Shown here: in pieces, positions 3,869 through 8,520 of the stretch
How positions within the stretch are numbered: position 1 is the stretch's first letter
How the letters are laid out: each line of letters begins with the position of its first letter
Position numbers and translations under genes: made by a program
Notes under the pieces: model-generated
Seen by the model: only the letters and a program-made list of their open reading frames with translations
Told to the model about the DNA's origin: nothing
The model's database searches: none
DNA from: a virus
Length of the DNA stretch: 10,919 nt
Virus genome (UHGV): UHGV-0088977
Reading direction: 5' to 3' (one strand)

Positions 3869-4231
3869 TTAACGACCTGCTGCGCGGAGTTTTCCGTCAG
3901 GTTCACCGGCAAGAGTCAGTAATTGTCCCTGGTCTTCCTGCAGAATAGTCAGGCGACCACCGCGATTGACATACATCGGCGTTTCGGTGGTGTCTTCTTC
4001 GGAAATTTTCCCGCGGTTAGTTGGGCGAACATATGAGAGTTTGTGTTTGATTTTCACACGGTTCTCATCAAACGGTTCGATTTCCAGATTGAGTGAGACC
4101 TTCCCTTTGGTTTTCGTGTTCATCACACCGGAAGCGACTTCACTGAGAACTGCGCCGATTTTGGTTTCAAATACGCCGCCGTCCAGCTCCCCGATAAATG
4201 CCTGCACATCAGTACTGCGTTCGCTAGCCAT
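3869..4231 (-). CDS. yfdP: YfdP-like small protein (about 120 aa; MASERSTDVQAFIGELDGG...)
   Basis: The track ORF runs to 4549, but a strong GAGGAG Shine-Dalgarno sits 8 nt upstream of the ATG at 4231, and the upstream extension crosses the GC-rich island with non-protein-like composition. The resulting 120-aa product matches the yfdP size I recall. Confidence 0.7.
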   Translation of the reverse strand: MASERSTDVQAFIGELDGGVFETKIGAVLSEVASGVMNTKTKGKVSLNLEIEPFDENRVKIKHKLSYVRPTNRGKISEEDTTETPMYVNRGGRLTILQEDQGQLLTLAGEPDGKLRAAGR

Positions 4232-4699
4232 TTTGCTGCTCCTCATCATATCGACCCTGCAAGGCCGATTAGTTTCTCCACAAAACAGAGAAGAACACCT
4301 GCGGTGGCAGCCGCCCGGATGGATTGGGTTATGAGCCCGTCGTCCGGTGATGCTCTTCTCTGTTTTGTAAAAAGGACGGTACCAGCCGGAAGCAAGAGTA
4401 CAAACTGGTACCGCCAAGACTACACACAGCATAAAGTTGTGGTGCCGGGTGCCTCCCGGTGCCTGGCGAAGGTTGCACACCAGGCGGGTGGGTATCCACA
4501 GAAGGTCGACTGTCAGCCTCAACCTTAACCCGCGTGCGCTGAGCCGCATTCACCACAACGCTAAGGATTCTCTCTGGTTGAAAATACTTAGCTGTTATGT
4601 GCCTGCTTTTAGCCACATCAGGCGAGGTGGACCTGGTTATTCCCCAACAACAAGGATTCGGTTAATCTGGTTATCCCCAACAACGCAAAAGGAAAAGAA
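4232..4699. promoter_or_regulatory. GC-rich structured non-coding island between the yfdP-like gene and the divergent 144-aa gene; probable divergent promoter and 5'-UTR region, possible ncRNA
   Basis: No convincing coding frame (the overlapping ORFs translate to P/G/S/R-rich low-complexity peptides); imperfect 17-bp inverted repeat 4281-4297/4351-4367 with a perfect 14-bp core; hairpin CCGGG-TGCCT-CCCGG near 4446-4460; GGTGCC direct repeat; CCTGG...CCAGG stem near 4462-4483. Confidence 0.4.
4633..4684 (+). repeat. Tandem direct repeat CTGGTTAT(T)CCCCAACAAC (copies at 4633-4651 and 4667-4684, 34-bp period), with a degenerate third copy at 4551-4580
   Basis: Seen directly; the second copy ends 15 nt before the ATG of the 144-aa gene and abuts its Shine-Dalgarno (AAAAGGA, 4687-4693). 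Confidence 0.6.
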
Positions 4700-5134
4700 A
4701 TGTCCGGTAATATCTATACGCTGTACAAATCCCACTGTGAAAATGTTGGAAAGTATCGGGGCATTGAAATCAGTGGGGTAGTGTCATCAGTCGAAATAAG
4801 CAAAGTTGAATCAAGGGCAACATTACTTACTCTTCTGGACCTTGTCTTACATGAGCACCGGAAGAAATTCGGCACTCCCTATAATCAGTTGAATGGGAAA
4901 AAAGCTCTGGTTCACCTTATTCTGATGAAGCATCACTGGATGCCAAAACAGATTAATGAGATGAAATTTGATGAACTTCTTCTTTCAATTCAGGATGAAC
5001 TCACGCTTGATAAAATAAGCGTAACCGCCCAGAAATTTTTAGATTATCGAGACTGGAGATCACAAATTCATCACTTTGATGATTTTGACGAAAATGAATG
5101 GGATCCTAATTTGTCTGCACAATATCTAAAGTAA
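4700..5134 (+). CDS. Hypothetical protein, 144 aa, AT-rich orphan (moron-like) gene of unknown function
   Basis: Uninterrupted 144-codon ORF in AT-rich DNA; Shine-Dalgarno AAGGA 6 nt upstream of the ATG; opposite orientation to the flanking leftward operon; plus-strand intrinsic terminator downstream at 5372-5397. No recognisable motif by eye. Confidence 0.7.
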   Translation: MSGNIYTLYKSHCENVGKYRGIEISGVVSSVEISKVESRATLLTLLDLVLHEHRKKFGTPYNQLNGKKALVHLILMKHHWMPKQINEMKFDELLLSIQDELTLDKISVTAQKFLDYRDWRSQIHHFDDFDENEWDPNLSAQYLK

Positions 5135-5312
5135 CATCCTGTGATAAAACCGTGATTTCCTGATCCAGTTTTTTTAAGGAGTCTATTGTTTCCTGTCGAT
5201 AAGACAGCACTTCACGAAGCTGGTTTATAGCTGCCAGCTTCTTTGCCATCCACTCGTAAATTTCCTCATTTGTGTATCCGGGTGCGACGATTTTTGGTTC
5301 TGTTTTGTGCAT
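5106..5312 (-). CDS. Hypothetical small protein, 68 aa (MHKTEPKIVAPGYTNEEIYEWMAKK...), hydrophilic and probably helical
   Basis: GAGGAGG Shine-Dalgarno 6 nt upstream of the ATG at 5312; the track's start at 5327 is a TTG that forms part of this SD; the 3' end overlaps the 3' end of the 144-aa gene by 29 nt in convergent orientation. Confidence 0.55.
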   Translation of the reverse strand: MHKTEPKIVAPGYTNEEIYEWMAKKLAAINQLREVLSYRQETIDSLKKLDQEITVLSQDVTLDIVQTN

Positions 5313-5371
5313 TTCACACCTCCTCAAGTTATCAGTTACTTGTTGATGGGGACCAGATTGTTAAAGAGCTA

Positions 5372-5397
5372 AGCGTCCTGTAGGGCGCTTTTTTGTT
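5372..5397 (+). terminator. Rho-independent terminator (stem AGCGTCC/GGGCGCT, loop TGTA, then a T-tract)
   Basis: 7-bp stem including one G-U pair, followed by TTTTT on the plus strand; the complementary strand would carry a C-A mismatch and a poor U-tract, so it is probably plus-strand specific. Confidence 0.6.
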
Positions 5398-5559
5398 GCT
5401 AACGAATCATCCTGGACTTCATATGCCCCAGGCGGCTACTTCGTGGGCGTCCTGCCTGTTCGTTATCTTTGATATAAAATCTAACTTAACTTAGTTATTA
5501 TGGCAAGAGAAAACACCAAACTTTTCTTAGTTCGGTGCCTTAGTTAGAGAAGAGAGGTC

Positions 5560-6186
5560 TTAGAGTTCGTATTGAACTCCTTTGACTACACCAATGATAA
5601 GGCAATTACCATTGATAGGGATGTTGGGATACCGAGGATTTAATGGCACTAAAAACTTTTGAGGGCCATCGATGACTAATTTTTTTACTGTAGCTTCGTT
5701 TGTTCCATCAAGTCGAGCGATGACTATTTTTCCATGACGAGGTTCTGCATCTGGATCTACAATCACTGTTGCGCCTTCTGGTATTGTTGGGAGGCCATTA
5801 GGGTTAGTCATGGAGTCACCTTTAACCTCTAATGCAAATGAGTTATCACCAATCTTTAATGATGTATCTACCCACTTGTCCACTTCACTAAACACTTCTG
5901 CTGCCCTGCACTCAGTAAACTGCCCAGCCTGAACCCACGATATTACAGGAACTCTGCGCATGTTTGTGACGAGTTTGCCTTCAAACTCAGCACCATAAAG
6001 AATGTAATCTATTGACGTATTGAAGAACTTCGCTAATTTCGAAAGTGCCTCCCCACCAGGGGTATTGATGTCTTTCTCCCAGTACCCCACAGCAACGTCG
6101 CTTACTCCACAAAATTTACCCAATTCTTTCTGGGACGTTCCGGTAACTCTTCTCAGAGCTTTTATACGCTGACCAACCGTTTCCAT
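5560..6186 (-). CDS. CI-like prophage repressor, XRE-type HTH fused to an S24 (LexA-like) autopeptidase domain, 208 aa
   Basis: N-terminal HTH (QKELGKFCGVSDVAVGYWEKD); C-terminal GDSM serine motif and VKKL lysine motif as in LexA/lambda CI; divergent from a Cro-like gene. Resembles e14 CohE by position, not verified. Confidence 0.9.
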   Translation of the reverse strand: METVGQRIKALRRVTGTSQKELGKFCGVSDVAVGYWEKDINTPGGEALSKLAKFFNTSIDYILYGAEFEGKLVTNMRRVPVISWVQAGQFTECRAAEVFSEVDKWVDTSLKIGDNSFALEVKGDSMTNPNGLPTIPEGATVIVDPDAEPRHGKIVIARLDGTNEATVKKLVIDGPQKFLVPLNPRYPNIPINGNCLIIGVVKGVQYEL

Positions 6187-6283
6187 AGGAGCACCATTTC
6201 TTGAATTGCTAAGTAATCTTAGTTTTTATTGACCAAAGATAGATTTGTAATTAGCATCTAATAAAACTTAGTTTGGAGGGCGT
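6187..6283. promoter_or_regulatory. Divergent repressor/cro promoter-operator region (PRM/PR-like)
   Basis: 97-bp AT-rich spacer between the divergent repressor and cro starts; near-palindromic motifs ATCTTAGTT (6216-6224) and AACTTAGTT (6265-6273) and inverted repeat CTAAGTAATCTTAG (6208-6221); candidate -35 TTGACC at 6229-6234; GGAGGG Shine-Dalgarno before the cro ATG. Confidence 0.6.
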
Positions 6284-6484
6284 ATGACAACTGACGATAT
6301 CGAAAGCTACTTCGGCAGTATTGAGAAAGTTGCTGCTTTTTTCGGCATAACAACTGAAGCCGTTTATCAGTGGCGAAACCGTCCGGGCCAGTTAATTCCA
6401 AAAGGACGTGCAGCAGAAGCTGCATATAGAACTTGCGGACGGTTGCCATTTAAACCTGAGCTTTATGAAAAATCTAATGGATAA
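6284..6484 (+). CDS. Cro-like small HTH regulator (66 aa)
   Basis: Small basic protein with an HTH-like segment (VAAFFGITTEAVYQWRNRPGQ); strong Shine-Dalgarno; divergent from the repressor; same length as the e14 Cro-like gene as I recall it. Confidence 0.8.
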   Translation: MTTDDIESYFGSIEKVAAFFGITTEAVYQWRNRPGQLIPKGRAAEAAYRTCGRLPFKPELYEKSNG

Positions 6485-7073
6485 ATCGATTAACAGAAAC
6501 CACAGAACGATGAGGTTAACCGTGGGTAAGCATCACTGGAAAGTAGAAAAACAGCCTGAGTGGTACGTGAAAGCTGTCAGAAAAACTATCGCAGCGTTGC
6601 CGGGTGGTTACGCTGAAGCAGCTGACTGGCTGGATGTAACAGAAAACGCATTATTTAACCGCCTTCGTGCCGATGGCGATCAGATTTTCCCGCTGGGATG
6701 GGCAATGATTTTGCAACGTGCTGGTGGAACTCACTTCATTGCTGACGCTGTGGCGCAGTCTGCAAATGGCGTCTTTGTGTCTCTTCCTGACGTCGAGGAT
6801 GTGGACAACGCCGATATTAACCAGCGCCTGCTGGAAGTCATTGAACAGATTGGCAGTTATTCCAGACAGATTCGTTCGGCAATCGAAGACGGTGTGGTGG
6901 AACCGCATGAGAAGACAGCAATTAACGACGAGCTGTATCTCTCAATTTCGAAGCTGCAGGAGCATGCAGCACTGGTCTACAAAATCTTTTGCATTTCAGA
7001 AAGTAATGACGCCCGCGAGTGTGCAGCTCCGGGCGCCGTGGCGTGTCGTGACTGTGGAGAAACTAACGCATGA
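6465..7073 (+). CDS. Early regulatory protein, YmfL/YdaT-like by position and size (about 200 aa); start uncertain (6465 or 6477)
   Basis: ORF immediately after and overlapping the cro stop, suggesting translational coupling; no clear Shine-Dalgarno; ATGA overlap with the next gene. Assignment rests on synteny with e14 as I recall it. Confidence 0.6.
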
Positions 7074-7417: not shown

Positions 7418-7972
7418 ATGAGCACTAAATTAACCGGCTATGTATGGGATGGTTGCGCTGCATCAGGCATGAAATTATCCAGCGTGGCAATTATGGCCCG
7501 CCTGGCTGATTTCAGTAATGACGAAGGTGTGTGCTGGCCATCAATTGAAACCATTGCCCGTCAGATTGGCGCGGGGATGAGTACCGTCAGGACGGCTATC
7601 GCACGGCTGGAAGCAGAAGGCTGGTTAACGCGTAAGGCGCGTCGCCAGGGTACGGGGGCAGGCTGTATTGCGCGTGCTGACTTTGAAGCCCGACAACGGG
7701 CGGCGCGGACGGATGAAACCACCTATGTGGTGCAGGGCTGGCGACAGGGTAACGGTACGCTGTGGCAGCCCAACCAGCGGGTGATTGTCTTTGATCCGGT
7801 CTGTGGTTTCGACAATACCGAACTGCTTGTTTCGGAAGTCACGTTTACTCAGGACCAGAACGGCACCCTGACGGAAATCCGTGTCGGCCCGCCTGATGCT
7901 TATCTGCCTGAACCCGAAGCCCCCGGCGCGCGGAAAAAGAAAAAAGCCAGAGTACAGGAGGACCCGTTCTGA
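7418..7972 (+). CDS. Apparently chimeric ORF (184 aa): N-terminal HTH/replication-initiator-like domain joined to a C-terminal fragment resembling the end of a Mu gp44-type baseplate hub protein; probable deletion-fusion
   Basis: N-terminus (SSVAIMARLADFSNDEGVCWPSIETIARQIGAGMSTVRTAIARLEAEGWL) looks like a phage O/HTH protein; the composition changes around residue 95, and the C-terminus runs straight into the baseplate V gene with TGATG stop/start coupling. Confidence 0.6.
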   Translation: MSTKLTGYVWDGCAASGMKLSSVAIMARLADFSNDEGVCWPSIETIARQIGAGMSTVRTAIARLEAEGWLTRKARRQGTGAGCIARADFEARQRAARTDETTYVVQGWRQGNGTLWQPNQRVIVFDPVCGFDNTELLVSEVTFTQDQNGTLTEIRVGPPDAYLPEPEAPGARKKKKARVQEDPF

Positions 7973-8520
7973 TGAGGACGATTGAAGCCATGCAGCGACA
8001 ACTCCTCGGCCTGATTGGGCGGGCCGTGGTGAAAAGTATCAGTGCCGCCACGAAATGTCAGACCGTGGATGTGTCCCTGATTGCCGGTGAACCCAAAGCC
8101 GGGGTTGAACATCTTGAACCCTACGGTTTTACCGCAAGGGCAAACAGCGGTGCGGAAGCGGTGGTGTTGTTTCCGGATGGCGACCGTTCTCATGCGGTGG
8201 TTGTTACGGTGTCGGACCGGCGCTACCGCCTGAAAGGGCTGCAGACGGGTGAGGTGGCTGTCTATGACGATCAGGGGCAGTCCGTGACGCTGACCCGGGA
8301 GGGGATCGTGGTGGACGGTGCAGGTAAAACGATCACGTTTCGCAATGCACCTGAAGCACGTTTTGAAATGGACCTGGAAGTGACAGGACAGGTGAAAGAC
8401 CTGTGCGACTCCGGCGGCACCACCATGTCAGCGATGCGGCTTGCCTATAACGGGCATCGTCACAGAGAGAACGGTCAGGGCAGTAACACCGACAAACCTG
8501 ATAAAGCGATGGAGGCATGA
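7972..8520 (+). CDS. Baseplate assembly protein V / spike-like (Mu gp45-like), 182 aa
   Basis: Position in the baseplate block; C-terminal NGHRH (HxH) motif as found at the apex of phage spike proteins; overlapping stop/start with flanking genes. Confidence 0.75.
   Translation: MRTIEAMQRQLLGLIGRAVVKSISAATKCQTVDVSLIAGEPKAGVEHLEPYGFTARANSGAEAVVLFPDGDRSHAVVVTVSDRRYRLKGLQTGEVAVYDDQGQSVTLTREGIVVDGAGKTITFRNAPEARFEMDLEVTGQVKDLCDSGGTTMSAMRLAYNGHRHRENGQGSNTDKPDKAMEA

Follow-up and report, generated by a model that had tools for sequence, protein, structure and literature searches.

The 10,919-nt stretch of viral DNA analyzed here (the window) carries short near-palindromic repeats on both sides of a phage repressor gene, raising the question of whether these repeats are operators through which the repressor would control both the cro promoter and a leftward promoter. 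Judged by its sequence, the window is an e14-family cryptic E. coli prophage inserted at icd, with intE and xisE present. The prophage is defective, as its replication gene has become joined to baseplate genes, and because of this the switch may no longer govern a lytic programme. The repressor gene (5560-6186, minus strand) encodes a cI-type protein of 208 aa, with a helix-turn-helix N-terminal domain related to that of P22 C2 (Pfam HTH_3, 1.1e-10) and an S24 C-terminal domain related to that of lambda cI (Peptidase_S24, 9.2e-28). Matches in the PDB were to the C-terminal domain of lambda cI (7.5e-28) and the N-terminal domain of P22 C2 (~2e-9), and over its full length the repressor is 48.8% identical to phage 21 cI and 47% identical to P22 c2. 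Alignment to lambda cI placed the cleavage site at Ala87-Gly88 and also identified Ser125 and Lys168. The gene is divergent from a cro-like gene of 66 aa (6284-6484, plus strand), which has a Shine-Dalgarno sequence, GGAGG, at 6275-6279 and whose product matched Pfam P22_Cro (4.4e-11) and was 30% identical to phage 21 Cro (E 5e-9).

The first-pass annotation had described a 9-bp palindrome, AACT-T-AGTT, with one-mismatch variants, at five places flanking the repressor gene. The exact motif, AACTTAGTT, is indeed found at 5488-5496 and 6265-6273, and ATCTTAGTT, which differs from it by one mismatch, at 6216-6224. The copies given as 5525-5532 and 5539-5545 were not one-mismatch variants; here the 7-mer CTTAGTT occurs alone (5526-5532 and 5539-5545), and as 9-mers each has two mismatches to AACTTAGTT. 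Five matches to the 9-mer with at most one mismatch were counted in the window versus 2.29 expected, a number reached in 18 of 200 shuffles and not significant alone, and three of these five are the palindrome seen from the opposite strand. Taken by itself, this count would favor reading the copies as chance repeats within AT-rich intergenic DNA. The 7-mer CTTAGTT, however, is present five times against an expectation of 0.99 (at least five in 1 of 200 shuffles), on the plus strand only, with every copy inside the two intergenic regions beside the repressor gene. For comparison, background motif rates were taken from 233 kb of DNA of heteroimmune prophages and host. Five copies per 187 intergenic bases contrast with nine, on either strand, in the 233 kb of unrelated DNA (Poisson P ~1e-13 for five within 187 bp), and the 7-mer was in none of 121 AT-rich 100-bp background windows. 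Three exact copies of CTAA-N6-TTAG are also found in the window, all of them intergenic, versus one in the 233 kb (P ~1e-10). The motifs flanking the repressor gene occur far above chance.

The 9-bp palindrome did not prove to be the conserved unit, and its self-complementarity is incidental. It was rejected as the binding unit because conservation reaches 9 bp further to the left, with half-sites CTAA(G) and (C)TTAG 10 bp apart. These half-sites sit one helical turn from each other, and two helix-turn-helix monomers could not use the shorter palindrome. The aligned sequences indicate that the recognition unit is an 18-bp dyad, A(A/T)CTAAG-N4-CTTAGTT, with the core CTAAG-N4-CTTAG, of which AACTTAGTT represents the right half-site CTTAGTT and two central bases. 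The consensus from 15 relatives, AACTAAGTTAACTTAGTT, has its information maxima at positions 3-6 and 13-16. In the P22 operator, whose consensus is ATTTAAGATATCTTAAAT, the two half-sites are read in the major groove, one turn from each other (PMC5175364). The window operators have the 18-bp geometry of the P22 c2 operator, ATTTAAG-N4-CTTAAAT, with two 7-bp half-sites and a 4-bp gap, and differ in having C for T at half-site position 3. A different register, CTAA-N2-TTAG, taken from the perfect palindrome CAAACTAAACTTAGTTTG of phage LLS, was rejected because that symmetry is the stem of the repressor-transcript terminator and is missing in the window allele.

A search of related prophages, as the first-pass annotation had proposed, revealed the sites, designated OR1 to OR3 on the cro side and OL1 and OL2 on the other, at the same positions in 16 relatives belonging to nine other genera. 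The region from OR3 to OR1 forms an ungapped 67-bp block shared by 17 sequences with repressors of 63-90% identity; the columns of the half-sites hardly vary (1.5-1.8 bits), and the central columns are variable. OL1, OL2, and the hexamers of the leftward promoter PL are likewise conserved among the relatives. The module is also carried by the deposited phage genomes mEp460, LLS, and vB_EcoM-689R6. In the searchable open-access literature, mEp460 appears in prophage lists only, and 14-mers of the operator sequences returned no match. We then scored the window with a symmetrised weight matrix made from the OR1 and OR3 sequences of 15 relatives, all from other genera. The four highest of ~10,900 window positions were OL1 (25.5 bits), OR1 (24.0), OR3 (21.0), and OL2 (12.7), the next being 8.5; in shuffled intergenic DNA, the 99.9th percentile of the best score was 16.4 bits. 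Retention of the positions in nine other genera, selection of the same sites by a matrix from other genera, and the background rates together refute the reading of the copies as chance repeats. The immunity region of the window is very probably an ordinary lambdoid one, related in type to those of P22 and phage 21, with predicted repressor operators on both sides of the repressor gene. The proposal of two operator sets flanking a cI-type repressor, one at the cro promoter and one at a leftward promoter, is in this form upheld as a prediction by positional conservation, the other-genera matrix, and the layout of phage 21.

On the right side, the promoter scan placed PR at 6229-6257 (plus strand), with a -35 of TTGACC (6229-6234), a 17-bp spacer, and a -10 of TAGCAT (6252-6257). 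The scan alone, with three promoter-like sites versus 3.3 expected, is not significant; in the relatives, the hexamers TTGAC(C) and TAnnAT keep a constant spacing. Three tandem dyads overlap PR between the repressor and cro genes, and their spacing is constant in the 17 sequences. OR1 (6256-6273, ATCTAATAAAACTTAGTT) contains the 6265-6273 motif, overlaps the final 2 nt of the PR -10 as well as the predicted PR start (~6264), and is invariant in position in all 17. OR3 (6207-6224, TGCTAAGTAATCTTAGTT), the site closest to the repressor gene, holds the 6216-6224 motif and lies upstream of the PR -35, at a distance of 4 bp; within it, CTAAGTnATCTTAG is nearly invariant among the relatives. The motifs of OR1 and OR3 had been recognized in the first-pass annotation, but a third, weak site was overlooked. 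This site, OR2 (6232-6249, ACCAAAGATAGATTTGTA), is a variant of the form CAAAG...TTTG that scores 1.7 bits, lies in the PR spacer, and overlaps the final 3 nt of the PR -35. The centers of OR3, OR2, and OR1 are 25 and 24 bp apart. C(C/T)AA-N6-TT(G/A)G is fixed at the OR2 position in all relatives, with the full CTAA-N6-TTAG in Rahnella, and OR2 is also the most divergent site of P22 and phage 21 (ACCAAAGGAATCTTAAGT and ACTAAAGGAATCTTTAGT, respectively). The sequence of OR2 is weak, and its position and the analogy with these phages suggest that it may be an operator.

The sole conserved -10-like hexamer for the repressor promoter PRM is TAAGAT (6221 to 6216, minus strand), which lies inside OR3 and is found in P22 OR3 as well. 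It is a candidate PRM -10, for which the -35 would land in the middle of OR2. The stretch of 20 bp that separates OR3 from the repressor ATG exhibited no conservation among the relatives, and PRM could not be placed.

Past the 3' end of the repressor gene, the second set, OL1 and OL2, overlaps the predicted promoter PL (5478-5506, minus strand, from the promoter scan). PL has a -35 of TTGCCA (5506 to 5501), a 17-bp spacer, a -10 of TAGATT (5483 to 5478), and a predicted start at ~5471; TTGAC(C/A)-17-TAGATT is kept at this place in the relatives. OL1 (5479-5496, ATCTAACTTAACTTAGTT) holds the 5488-5496 motif and spans the PL spacer and five of the six nucleotides of the -10. OL2 (5515-5532, ACCAAACTTTTCTTAGTT) combines a left half of CAAA with a consensus right half, and 8 bp separate it from the PL -35, upstream of which it is located. 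The motif at 5525-5532 stands as the right half of OL2, with the correction that the site falls within an intrinsic-terminator-like hairpin of the repressor transcript (5506-5537, minus strand; CACCGAAC/GUUUGGUG at 5537 to 5514, then UUUUCUCU). The minimum free energy of this hairpin is -15.1 kcal/mol (z -1.99), and the 3' end of the repressor transcript is predicted at ~5506-5513. The motif at 5539-5545 was not sustained as an operator, as it is a lone CTTAGTT half-site on the plus strand for which a conserved partner is absent. The corresponding 18-mer (5528-5545) was rejected as OL3; it has GTTCG instead of the left half-site CTAAG, does not rank in the top 15 hits of the matrix, and shares 5 nt with OL2, and the relatives keep only part of TTAG at 5539-5545. 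No third left-hand operator was found in the window, only OL1 and OL2.

It could be argued that only the right-hand sites are operators, the left CTTAGTT copies being by-products of the terminator hairpin and the AT-rich promoter that the repressor does not bind. In keeping with this, OL2 is wholly inside the hairpin, which in nine relatives has 97% of cells paired, with one compensatory pair and three one-sided (G-U) changes, and the third left motif is unsupported; RNA hairpin overlap could account for part of the conservation of OL2. We nonetheless consider this explanation improbable. OL1 does not fall in the hairpin, is the top-scoring site of the window, and is identical in six genera (E. 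coli, Enterobacter, Kosakonia, Kluyvera, Rahnella, and Serratia Ag1). The hairpin of the window allele has the CTTAG of OL2 in its loop, and pairing cannot account for the conservation of these bases. In Yersinia proxima, Providencia, and Proteus, the sequence aligned with OL2 is a clean ATCTAA-N6-TTAG that is free of any hairpin, and the annotated OL1 and OL2 of phage 21 are at the same distances from pL as those of the window are from PL. These observations argue for operators on the left side as well as on the right.

Across three clades, the half-site sequence shifts together with the recognition helix of the repressor. The helix SDVAVGYWE, as in the window, pairs with CTAAG-N4-CTTAG; SHVAISQWE (SNVAISQWE in P22) pairs with TTAAG-N4-CTTAA; and NRVTVTGWE pairs with GTAGG/GTAAG dyads. 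The window, having CTAAG and SDVAVGY, lacks the specificity of P22/21 immunity (TTAAG and SNVAISQ), and the sequences imply a distinct immunity type within the P22/21 family, with a new DNA specificity. The covariation also bears on which protein would bind the dyads, as they might be bound chiefly by another local protein, namely Cro alone, a CII/YmfL-like protein, or the 68-aa product of the first ORF past PL. Cro is a member of the P22_Cro family and adjoins the sites, but it is with the helix of the repressor that the half-sites co-vary, and the site geometry fits the N-terminal domain of P22 C2, a relative of the N-terminal domain of this repressor. In characterized lambdoid phages, operators are common to the repressor and Cro, and binding by Cro would therefore add to repressor binding rather than replace it. 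We judge it very unlikely that one of these other proteins is the chief ligand, and favor the repressor.

The 208-aa repressor most likely binds the 18-bp dyads as a dimer. OR1 covers the predicted start of PR, OR2 fills its spacer, and OR3 lies upstream of PR toward the repressor gene; with OR1 and OR2 occupied, PR and cro would be off, and OR3 would limit repressor synthesis. At the left side, OL1 covers the spacer and -10 of the predicted PL, with OL2 upstream of the -35. RecA-stimulated cleavage at Ala87-Gly88 would free both PR and PL, and Cro would act on the same sites. The sequences show the sites, their statistics and positional conservation, their homology to the annotated operators of phage 21, and the joint change of half-site and recognition helix; that the repressor binds, the order in which sites would fill, any cooperativity or looping, and where PRM lies are inferred. 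Looping between OL and OR, whose centers are ~750 bp apart, is possible given that the C-terminal domain of the repressor resembles that of lambda cI.

Directly downstream of PL, beginning ~4 nt past its predicted start, is a structured RNA of 70 nt (5398-5467, minus strand; ~+5 to +74 of the predicted PL transcript), with the conserved loop GGCAUAUGAAG and strand CACGAAGUAGCCG. In an alignment of the element, 97.2% of cells were paired and compensatory changes were present in 9 of 14 pairs, a level reached by none of 500 shuffles, and the RNAalifold fold agreed with the covariation fold. Distinct variants of the element numbered 131. The structure is seen from the alignment only, the single-sequence fold of the PL leader being uninformative (z -0.24). 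The RNA has the same position in SfV, ZF40, ST64B, and K-12 e14, and it is found in the PL leader of many enterobacterial temperate phages of differing immunity types (e14, SfII, SfIV, SfV, ST64B, ZF40, mEp237, and mEp460). It is close to certain that this RNA exists as a widespread, unannotated element. No Rfam family matched it, even at E values up to 10 on a 161-nt slice, which yielded chance terminator-like hits only, and its core had no match in the open-access literature. A hammerhead-like three-way junction, perceived by eye, was rejected because the junction strands do not fit the CUGAUGA/GAAA core.

The location of this RNA recalls the put elements of HK022 and HK639, which are likewise ~70 nt, immediately downstream of PL, and present as one copy in the left operon. 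As with those phages, the phages carrying the RNA have no annotated N gene and have intrinsic terminators further along the operon. The fold differs, put having two long stems and the window RNA a closing stem and two hairpins. Homology to put was rejected because the folds differ and because the covariance model (R1) found nothing in the HK022 loci or in HK639, including its annotated putL-like RNA; the short strings ACGAAC and CAGGAUGA are shared. The N/nut arrangement of lambda was not found in the PL leader, where a boxA-like GCUCUUUAACAA (5358-5369, minus strand) comes after a hairpin rather than before one, and the 68-aa ORF had no Pfam match and no arginine-rich motif. By analogy with put, the RNA could conceivably be a third kind of processive antitermination element of early operons, an idea we put forward as tentative and somewhat doubtful. 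Such antitermination would carry PL transcripts past an intrinsic terminator at ~4369-4415 to yfdPQR, xis, and int.

The finding itself is of modest value: the P22/21 repressor family gains a defined consensus for one more operator and, with it, a third class of specificity. The pairs SDVAVGY/CTAAG, SNVAISQ/TTAAG, and NRVTVTG/GTAGG offer a natural set for the re-targeting of a helix-turn-helix by one or two residues. Also marked are the predicted promoters whose repression would silence this cryptic prophage, which is very common in E. coli, with a match in 1536 of 5426 complete genomes. Precise placement of PL also shows that, in a large group of phages without N, the early-left transcript opens with the conserved, strongly covarying RNA. 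How N-less phages pass early terminators becomes directly testable, and this by-product may matter more than the operators.

Among known systems, the closest match is phage 21, whose record annotates 18-bp OR1-3 and OL1-3, the cI terminator, and the pL start, and which the window layout follows part for part. The pL of phage 21, TTGACC-AATAAATTAAGAAGTCT-TAAATT, corresponds to TTGCCA-TAATAACTAAGTTAAGT-TAGATT in the window, each with a 17-bp spacer, and its start is annotated 8 nt past OL1; OL1 and OL2 are separated by 35 bp in phage 21 and 36 bp in the window. Phage 21 and P22 share with the window the TAAG/CTTA core, three right-hand sites ~23-25 bp apart, an OL1 in the PL spacer and -10, and an OL2 ~35 bp away and upstream of the -35. 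Annotated terminators directly follow cI in phage 21 and SfV, as the terminator-like hairpin follows the repressor gene in the window. In contrast, phage 21 and P22 have three left-hand sites where two were found in the window, their terminator precedes OL3 instead of lying over OL2, and their PL leader has boxA/nutL with N in place of the different RNA element. OR3 abuts the start codon in P22 and is ~20 bp from it in the window. With lambda, the window shares a repressor gene that diverges from cro, an OR of three sites, a second set at a leftward promoter past the 3' end of the repressor gene, and a homologous repressor C-terminal domain in which, by alignment, the cleavage site and Ser/Lys pair are conserved. 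The N-terminal domain and operator sequence of lambda are unrelated, and its OL and OR are ~2.4 kb apart, whereas those of the window are ~750 bp apart with no rex genes between. K-12 e14 (ymfK/cohE and ymfT/croE) and SfV share with the window the icd site, intE/xisE, the neighboring ymfL and ymfM, dyads on both sides of the repressor gene, and the conserved RNA to the left of the left-hand dyads. Their repressor, however, has 224 aa and resembles that of the window in the C-terminal domain only (42% over 125 aa), and their dyads are GTAC-type, unlike the CTAAG-type of the window. The window and K-12 e14/SfV are therefore different immunity modules on a shared backbone.

The first-pass annotation had marked a 9-bp motif at five places around the repressor gene and read them as operator sets like OL and OR of lambda. 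The positions of the motif were correct: exact copies of the 9-mer AACTTAGTT are found at 5488-5496 and 6265-6273, and 6216-6224 departs from it by a single base. At the remaining two sites, only the 7-mer CTTAGTT is shared. Taken alone, the 9-mer with one mismatch gave five matches against 2.29 expected, which is not significant. The 7-mer occurs in a significant five copies against 0.99 expected, all on the plus strand and within the two intergenic regions flanking the repressor gene. A background of 233 kb of heteroimmune prophage and host DNA contained CTTAGTT nine times and CTAA-N6-TTAG once, as compared to five and three here within 187 bp (Poisson P about 1e-13 and about 1e-10, respectively), and CTTAGTT was absent from all 121 AT-rich 100-bp windows of the background. 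Its frequency is thus far above that expected by chance in AT-rich DNA.

Repeat analysis revealed that the similarity runs further left than the 9-bp motif, 5481-5501 resembling 6209-6229, and that every strong copy has the form A(T)CTAA-N6-TTAGTT. The predicted recognition unit is therefore not the 9-mer; it is a dyad of 18 bp in which 10 bp separate one half-site from the next. Homologues of the repressor were then taken from species-representative genomes, and the flanks of 16 relatives (repressors 63-90% identical) from Enterobacter, Kosakonia, Kluyvera, Serratia, Rahnella, Yersinia, Rouxiella, Providencia, and Proteus were aligned. The positions of the predicted operators and their half-sites were conserved across these nine genera. 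The 67 bp from OR3 to OR1, the outer right operators, aligned without gaps, with half-site columns near invariant and central columns variable, and the relatives gave the consensus AACTAAGTTAACTTAGTT. No match to the operator sequences was found in the open-access literature searched. A symmetrised matrix built solely from OR1 and OR3 of other genera was run across the window, and its top four hits were 5479-5496 (25.5 bits), 6256-6273 (24.0 bits), 6207-6224 (21.0 bits), and 5515-5532 (12.7 bits). In shuffled intergenic DNA, the best score had a 99.9th percentile of 16.4 bits. The fifth hit, TACTAAGTAGACTTATTA at 834-851 (8.5 bits), is intergenic, downstream of intE, and below the three strong sites; it may be a chance match.

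On the right, OR3 (6207-6224), OR2 (6232-6249), and OR1 (6256-6273) are spaced 25 and 24 bp from center to center. The predicted rightward promoter PR comprises a -35 element TTGACC (6229-6234), a 17-bp spacer, and a -10 element TAGCAT (6252-6257), both hexamers being kept at fixed spacing in the relatives. OR1 covers the predicted PR start, and OR2 fills the spacer. OR2 is weak (1.7 bits) and had been missed previously because it lacks CTTAGTT, but the pattern C(C/T)AA-N6-TT(G/A)G is found at this position in all relatives, and Rahnella has the full consensus there. Among the right operators of P22 and phage 21, too, OR2 is the most divergent. A search of the right-hand region for PRM, the repressor promoter, yielded no placement.

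On the left, the predicted promoter PL has a -35 element TTGCCA (5506 to 5501), a 17-bp spacer, and a -10 element TAGATT (5483 to 5478); in relatives it reads TTGACC-17-TAGATT. OL1 (5479-5496) spans the spacer and most of the -10 element, and OL2 (5515-5532) is upstream of the promoter, 8 bp from the -35 element. The PL/OL1 segment could be matched base for base with that of phage 21, TTGACC-AATAAATTAAGAAGTCT-TAAATT in phage 21 and TTGCCA-TAATAACTAAGTTAAGT-TAGATT in the window, and the distance from OL2 to OL1 is 36 bp as opposed to 35 bp. From this homology to phage 21 pL, transcription from PL should start near 5471. The GenBank record of phage 21 lists, in order, a terminator after cI, OL3, OL2, OL1, and the pL start. 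The motif at 5539-5545 was rejected as an operator, having no left half-site, a 5-nt overlap with OL2, and no conservation. The earlier reading of putative operator sets flanking the repressor gene, at PR and a leftward PL, was nonetheless right in substance, as predicted sites are located at both promoters in the layout of phage 21.

A minus-strand hairpin (5537 to 5514; CACCGAAC/GUUUGGUG, then UUUUCUCU; -15.1 kcal/mol, z -1.99) overlies OL2; its best interpretation is that it terminates the repressor transcript. Across nine relatives, its helix is 97% paired, with one compensatory pair and three one-sided changes (G-U). Its counterparts in phage 21 and SfV are the annotated terminators that follow cI, the window's differing in that it overlies OL2. 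The CTTAG of OL2 falls in the hairpin loop in the window allele, yet is conserved, and in Yersinia proxima, Providencia, and Proteus the aligned OL2 is a clean operator without the hairpin; for these reasons, OL2 was kept as a predicted operator with a second role.

Just left of PL, at about +5 of the predicted transcript, is a 70-nt structured RNA (5398-5467, minus strand). It is conserved beside quite different immunity regions, for example in K-12 e14, SfII, SfIV, SfV (one copy), ST64B, SPN3UB, mEp237, ZF40, YeP1, and phiNP, whose records carry no annotation of it. Its place is the PL leader in e14, SfII, SfIV, SfV, ST64B, ZF40, mEp237, and mEp460, as well as in others. An alignment of 18 sequences indicated a closing stem P1, then the small GGC/GCC hairpin P2, a strand of 14 conserved nucleotides (CACGAAGUAGCCG), and P3, a hairpin whose stem varies and whose loop GGCRUAYGAAG (GGCAUAUGAAG) is conserved; RNAalifold gave the same fold. 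The alignment was 97.2% paired with compensatory changes in nine of 14 pairs, a level reached by none of 500 shuffles, and slid controls were 22-42% paired. The core was present on at least 120 viral contigs, and among the 131 distinct variants the P3 arms pair fully in 19 combinations, while P1 takes the form of three unrelated stems. Neither an Rfam family nor the open-access literature searched provided a match. The covariance model found no match in HK022, phage 21, or P22, nor in HK639, whose record lists a putL-like RNA at the corresponding position, and the RNA is distinct from the put antiterminator RNAs of HK022 and HK639. We consider it a candidate new cis-regulatory RNA, and it is reasonable to hypothesise that it acts in cis in antitermination.

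Past this RNA, the minus strand holds a weak hairpin, an rrn-type boxA, a 68-aa ORF, and an intrinsic terminator (about 4369-4415). The boxA, GCUCUUUAACAA at 5358-5369, has the same sequence as the rrn boxA consensus core and is similar to boxA-L of both phage 21 and P22. In the window it comes after a hairpin instead of before one, and no N-like gene is present. At 5371-5399, a good intrinsic terminator acts rightward only: the plus strand has an 8-bp stem with a G-T pair, then TTTTTTGTTG, while on the minus strand the stem is broken by a C-A mismatch and lacks a U run, and it would therefore stop transcription arriving from a 144-aa plus-strand gene and not PL transcripts. That gene, of the ECs1072 family (4700-5134), is convergent with the 68-aa ORF (5106-5312, minus strand; strong GAGGAGG Shine-Dalgarno), their 3' ends overlapping, an arrangement like that of ymfI/ymfJ in K-12 e14. 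Neither protein had a Pfam match. Further on, 4366-4589 (minus strand) matched Rfam STnc100 at 43.5 bits, just below the gathering score of 47 (E 7e-07), and ends in the terminator GGCGGUACCAG...CUGGUACCGUCC plus UUUUU, upstream of yfdP, where SfV also has an annotated terminator. The listed 226-aa ORF (3869-4549) is an artefact running through this region, RefSeq yfdP corresponding to 3870-4232.

Escherichia coli chromosomes match the window at 100% identity. In strain ML35 it adjoins icd and carries intE, xisE, yfdR, yfdQ, yfdP, a LexA-family repressor, a Cro/CI regulator, and ymfL, after which come baseplate genes with attached pieces of replication genes; this location and gene content indicate a defective e14-family prophage. 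In the window, the fusion of a helix-turn-helix replication-gene fragment to baseplate genes (7418-8520) is itself a mark of a defective prophage, and PR would therefore now read into tail genes rather than a replication module. Further along the host genome (L003 11194-12221), replication protein P, ren, and emrE are present as fragments. The interval 5300-6500 was matched in 1536 of 5426 complete E. coli genomes, and the same immunity module is found in the deposited phages vB_EcoM-689R6, vB_EcoS-569R4, and mEp460 (95-100% DNA identity) and in the LLS phage genome (77% DNA and 90% protein identity).

The repressor (208 aa; 5560-6186, minus strand) combines an HTH_3 with a Peptidase_S24 domain, and its identity is 48.8% with phage 21 cI and 47% with P22 c2. 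The divergent 66-aa gene belongs to the P22_Cro family. The repressor C-terminal domain resembles that of lambda cI (E 7.5e-28), and the aligned Ala87-Gly88 cleavage site, Ser125, and Lys168 are all kept. Looping between OL and OR is plausible, given this lambda-like domain and the separation of the sets by about 750 bp. The N-terminal domain resembles the solved domain of P22 C2 (E about 2e-9). P22 c2 recognises ATTTAAGATATCTTAAAT by way of two half-sites in the major groove, spaced by one turn, and its Val33 packs on the methyl groups of TTAA (PMC5175364). The window's operators differ from this site mainly at half-site position 3, with C for T. Recognition helix and half-site covary across the repressor family, including the Photorhabdus, Xenorhabdus, Morganella, and Proteus loci (L025-L035): SDVAVGYWE goes with CTAAG-N4-CTTAG in the window's clade, SHVAISQWE with TTAAG-N4-CTTAA in Photorhabdus and Xenorhabdus (SNVAISQWE in P22), and NRVTVTGWE with GTAGG/GTAAG dyads in Proteus and Morganella. 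These loci could serve directly for working out a helix-turn-helix recognition code. K-12 e14 and SfV share the backbone but have a different 224-aa repressor and GTAC-type dyads (GGTACAnnnTGTAyc) on both sides of its gene, in the same places as the window's CTAAG dyads (e14, L004 6186-6220 and 6950-7020; SfV, L171 25610-25645), the immunity module having been swapped between conserved flanks. The likeness to the P22 c2 site, the covariation, and this joint change of repressor and dyads assign the predicted operators to the repressor as the protein that probably binds them. Judged by sequence, the region belongs to the P22/21 type of lambdoid immunity region but differs in specificity.
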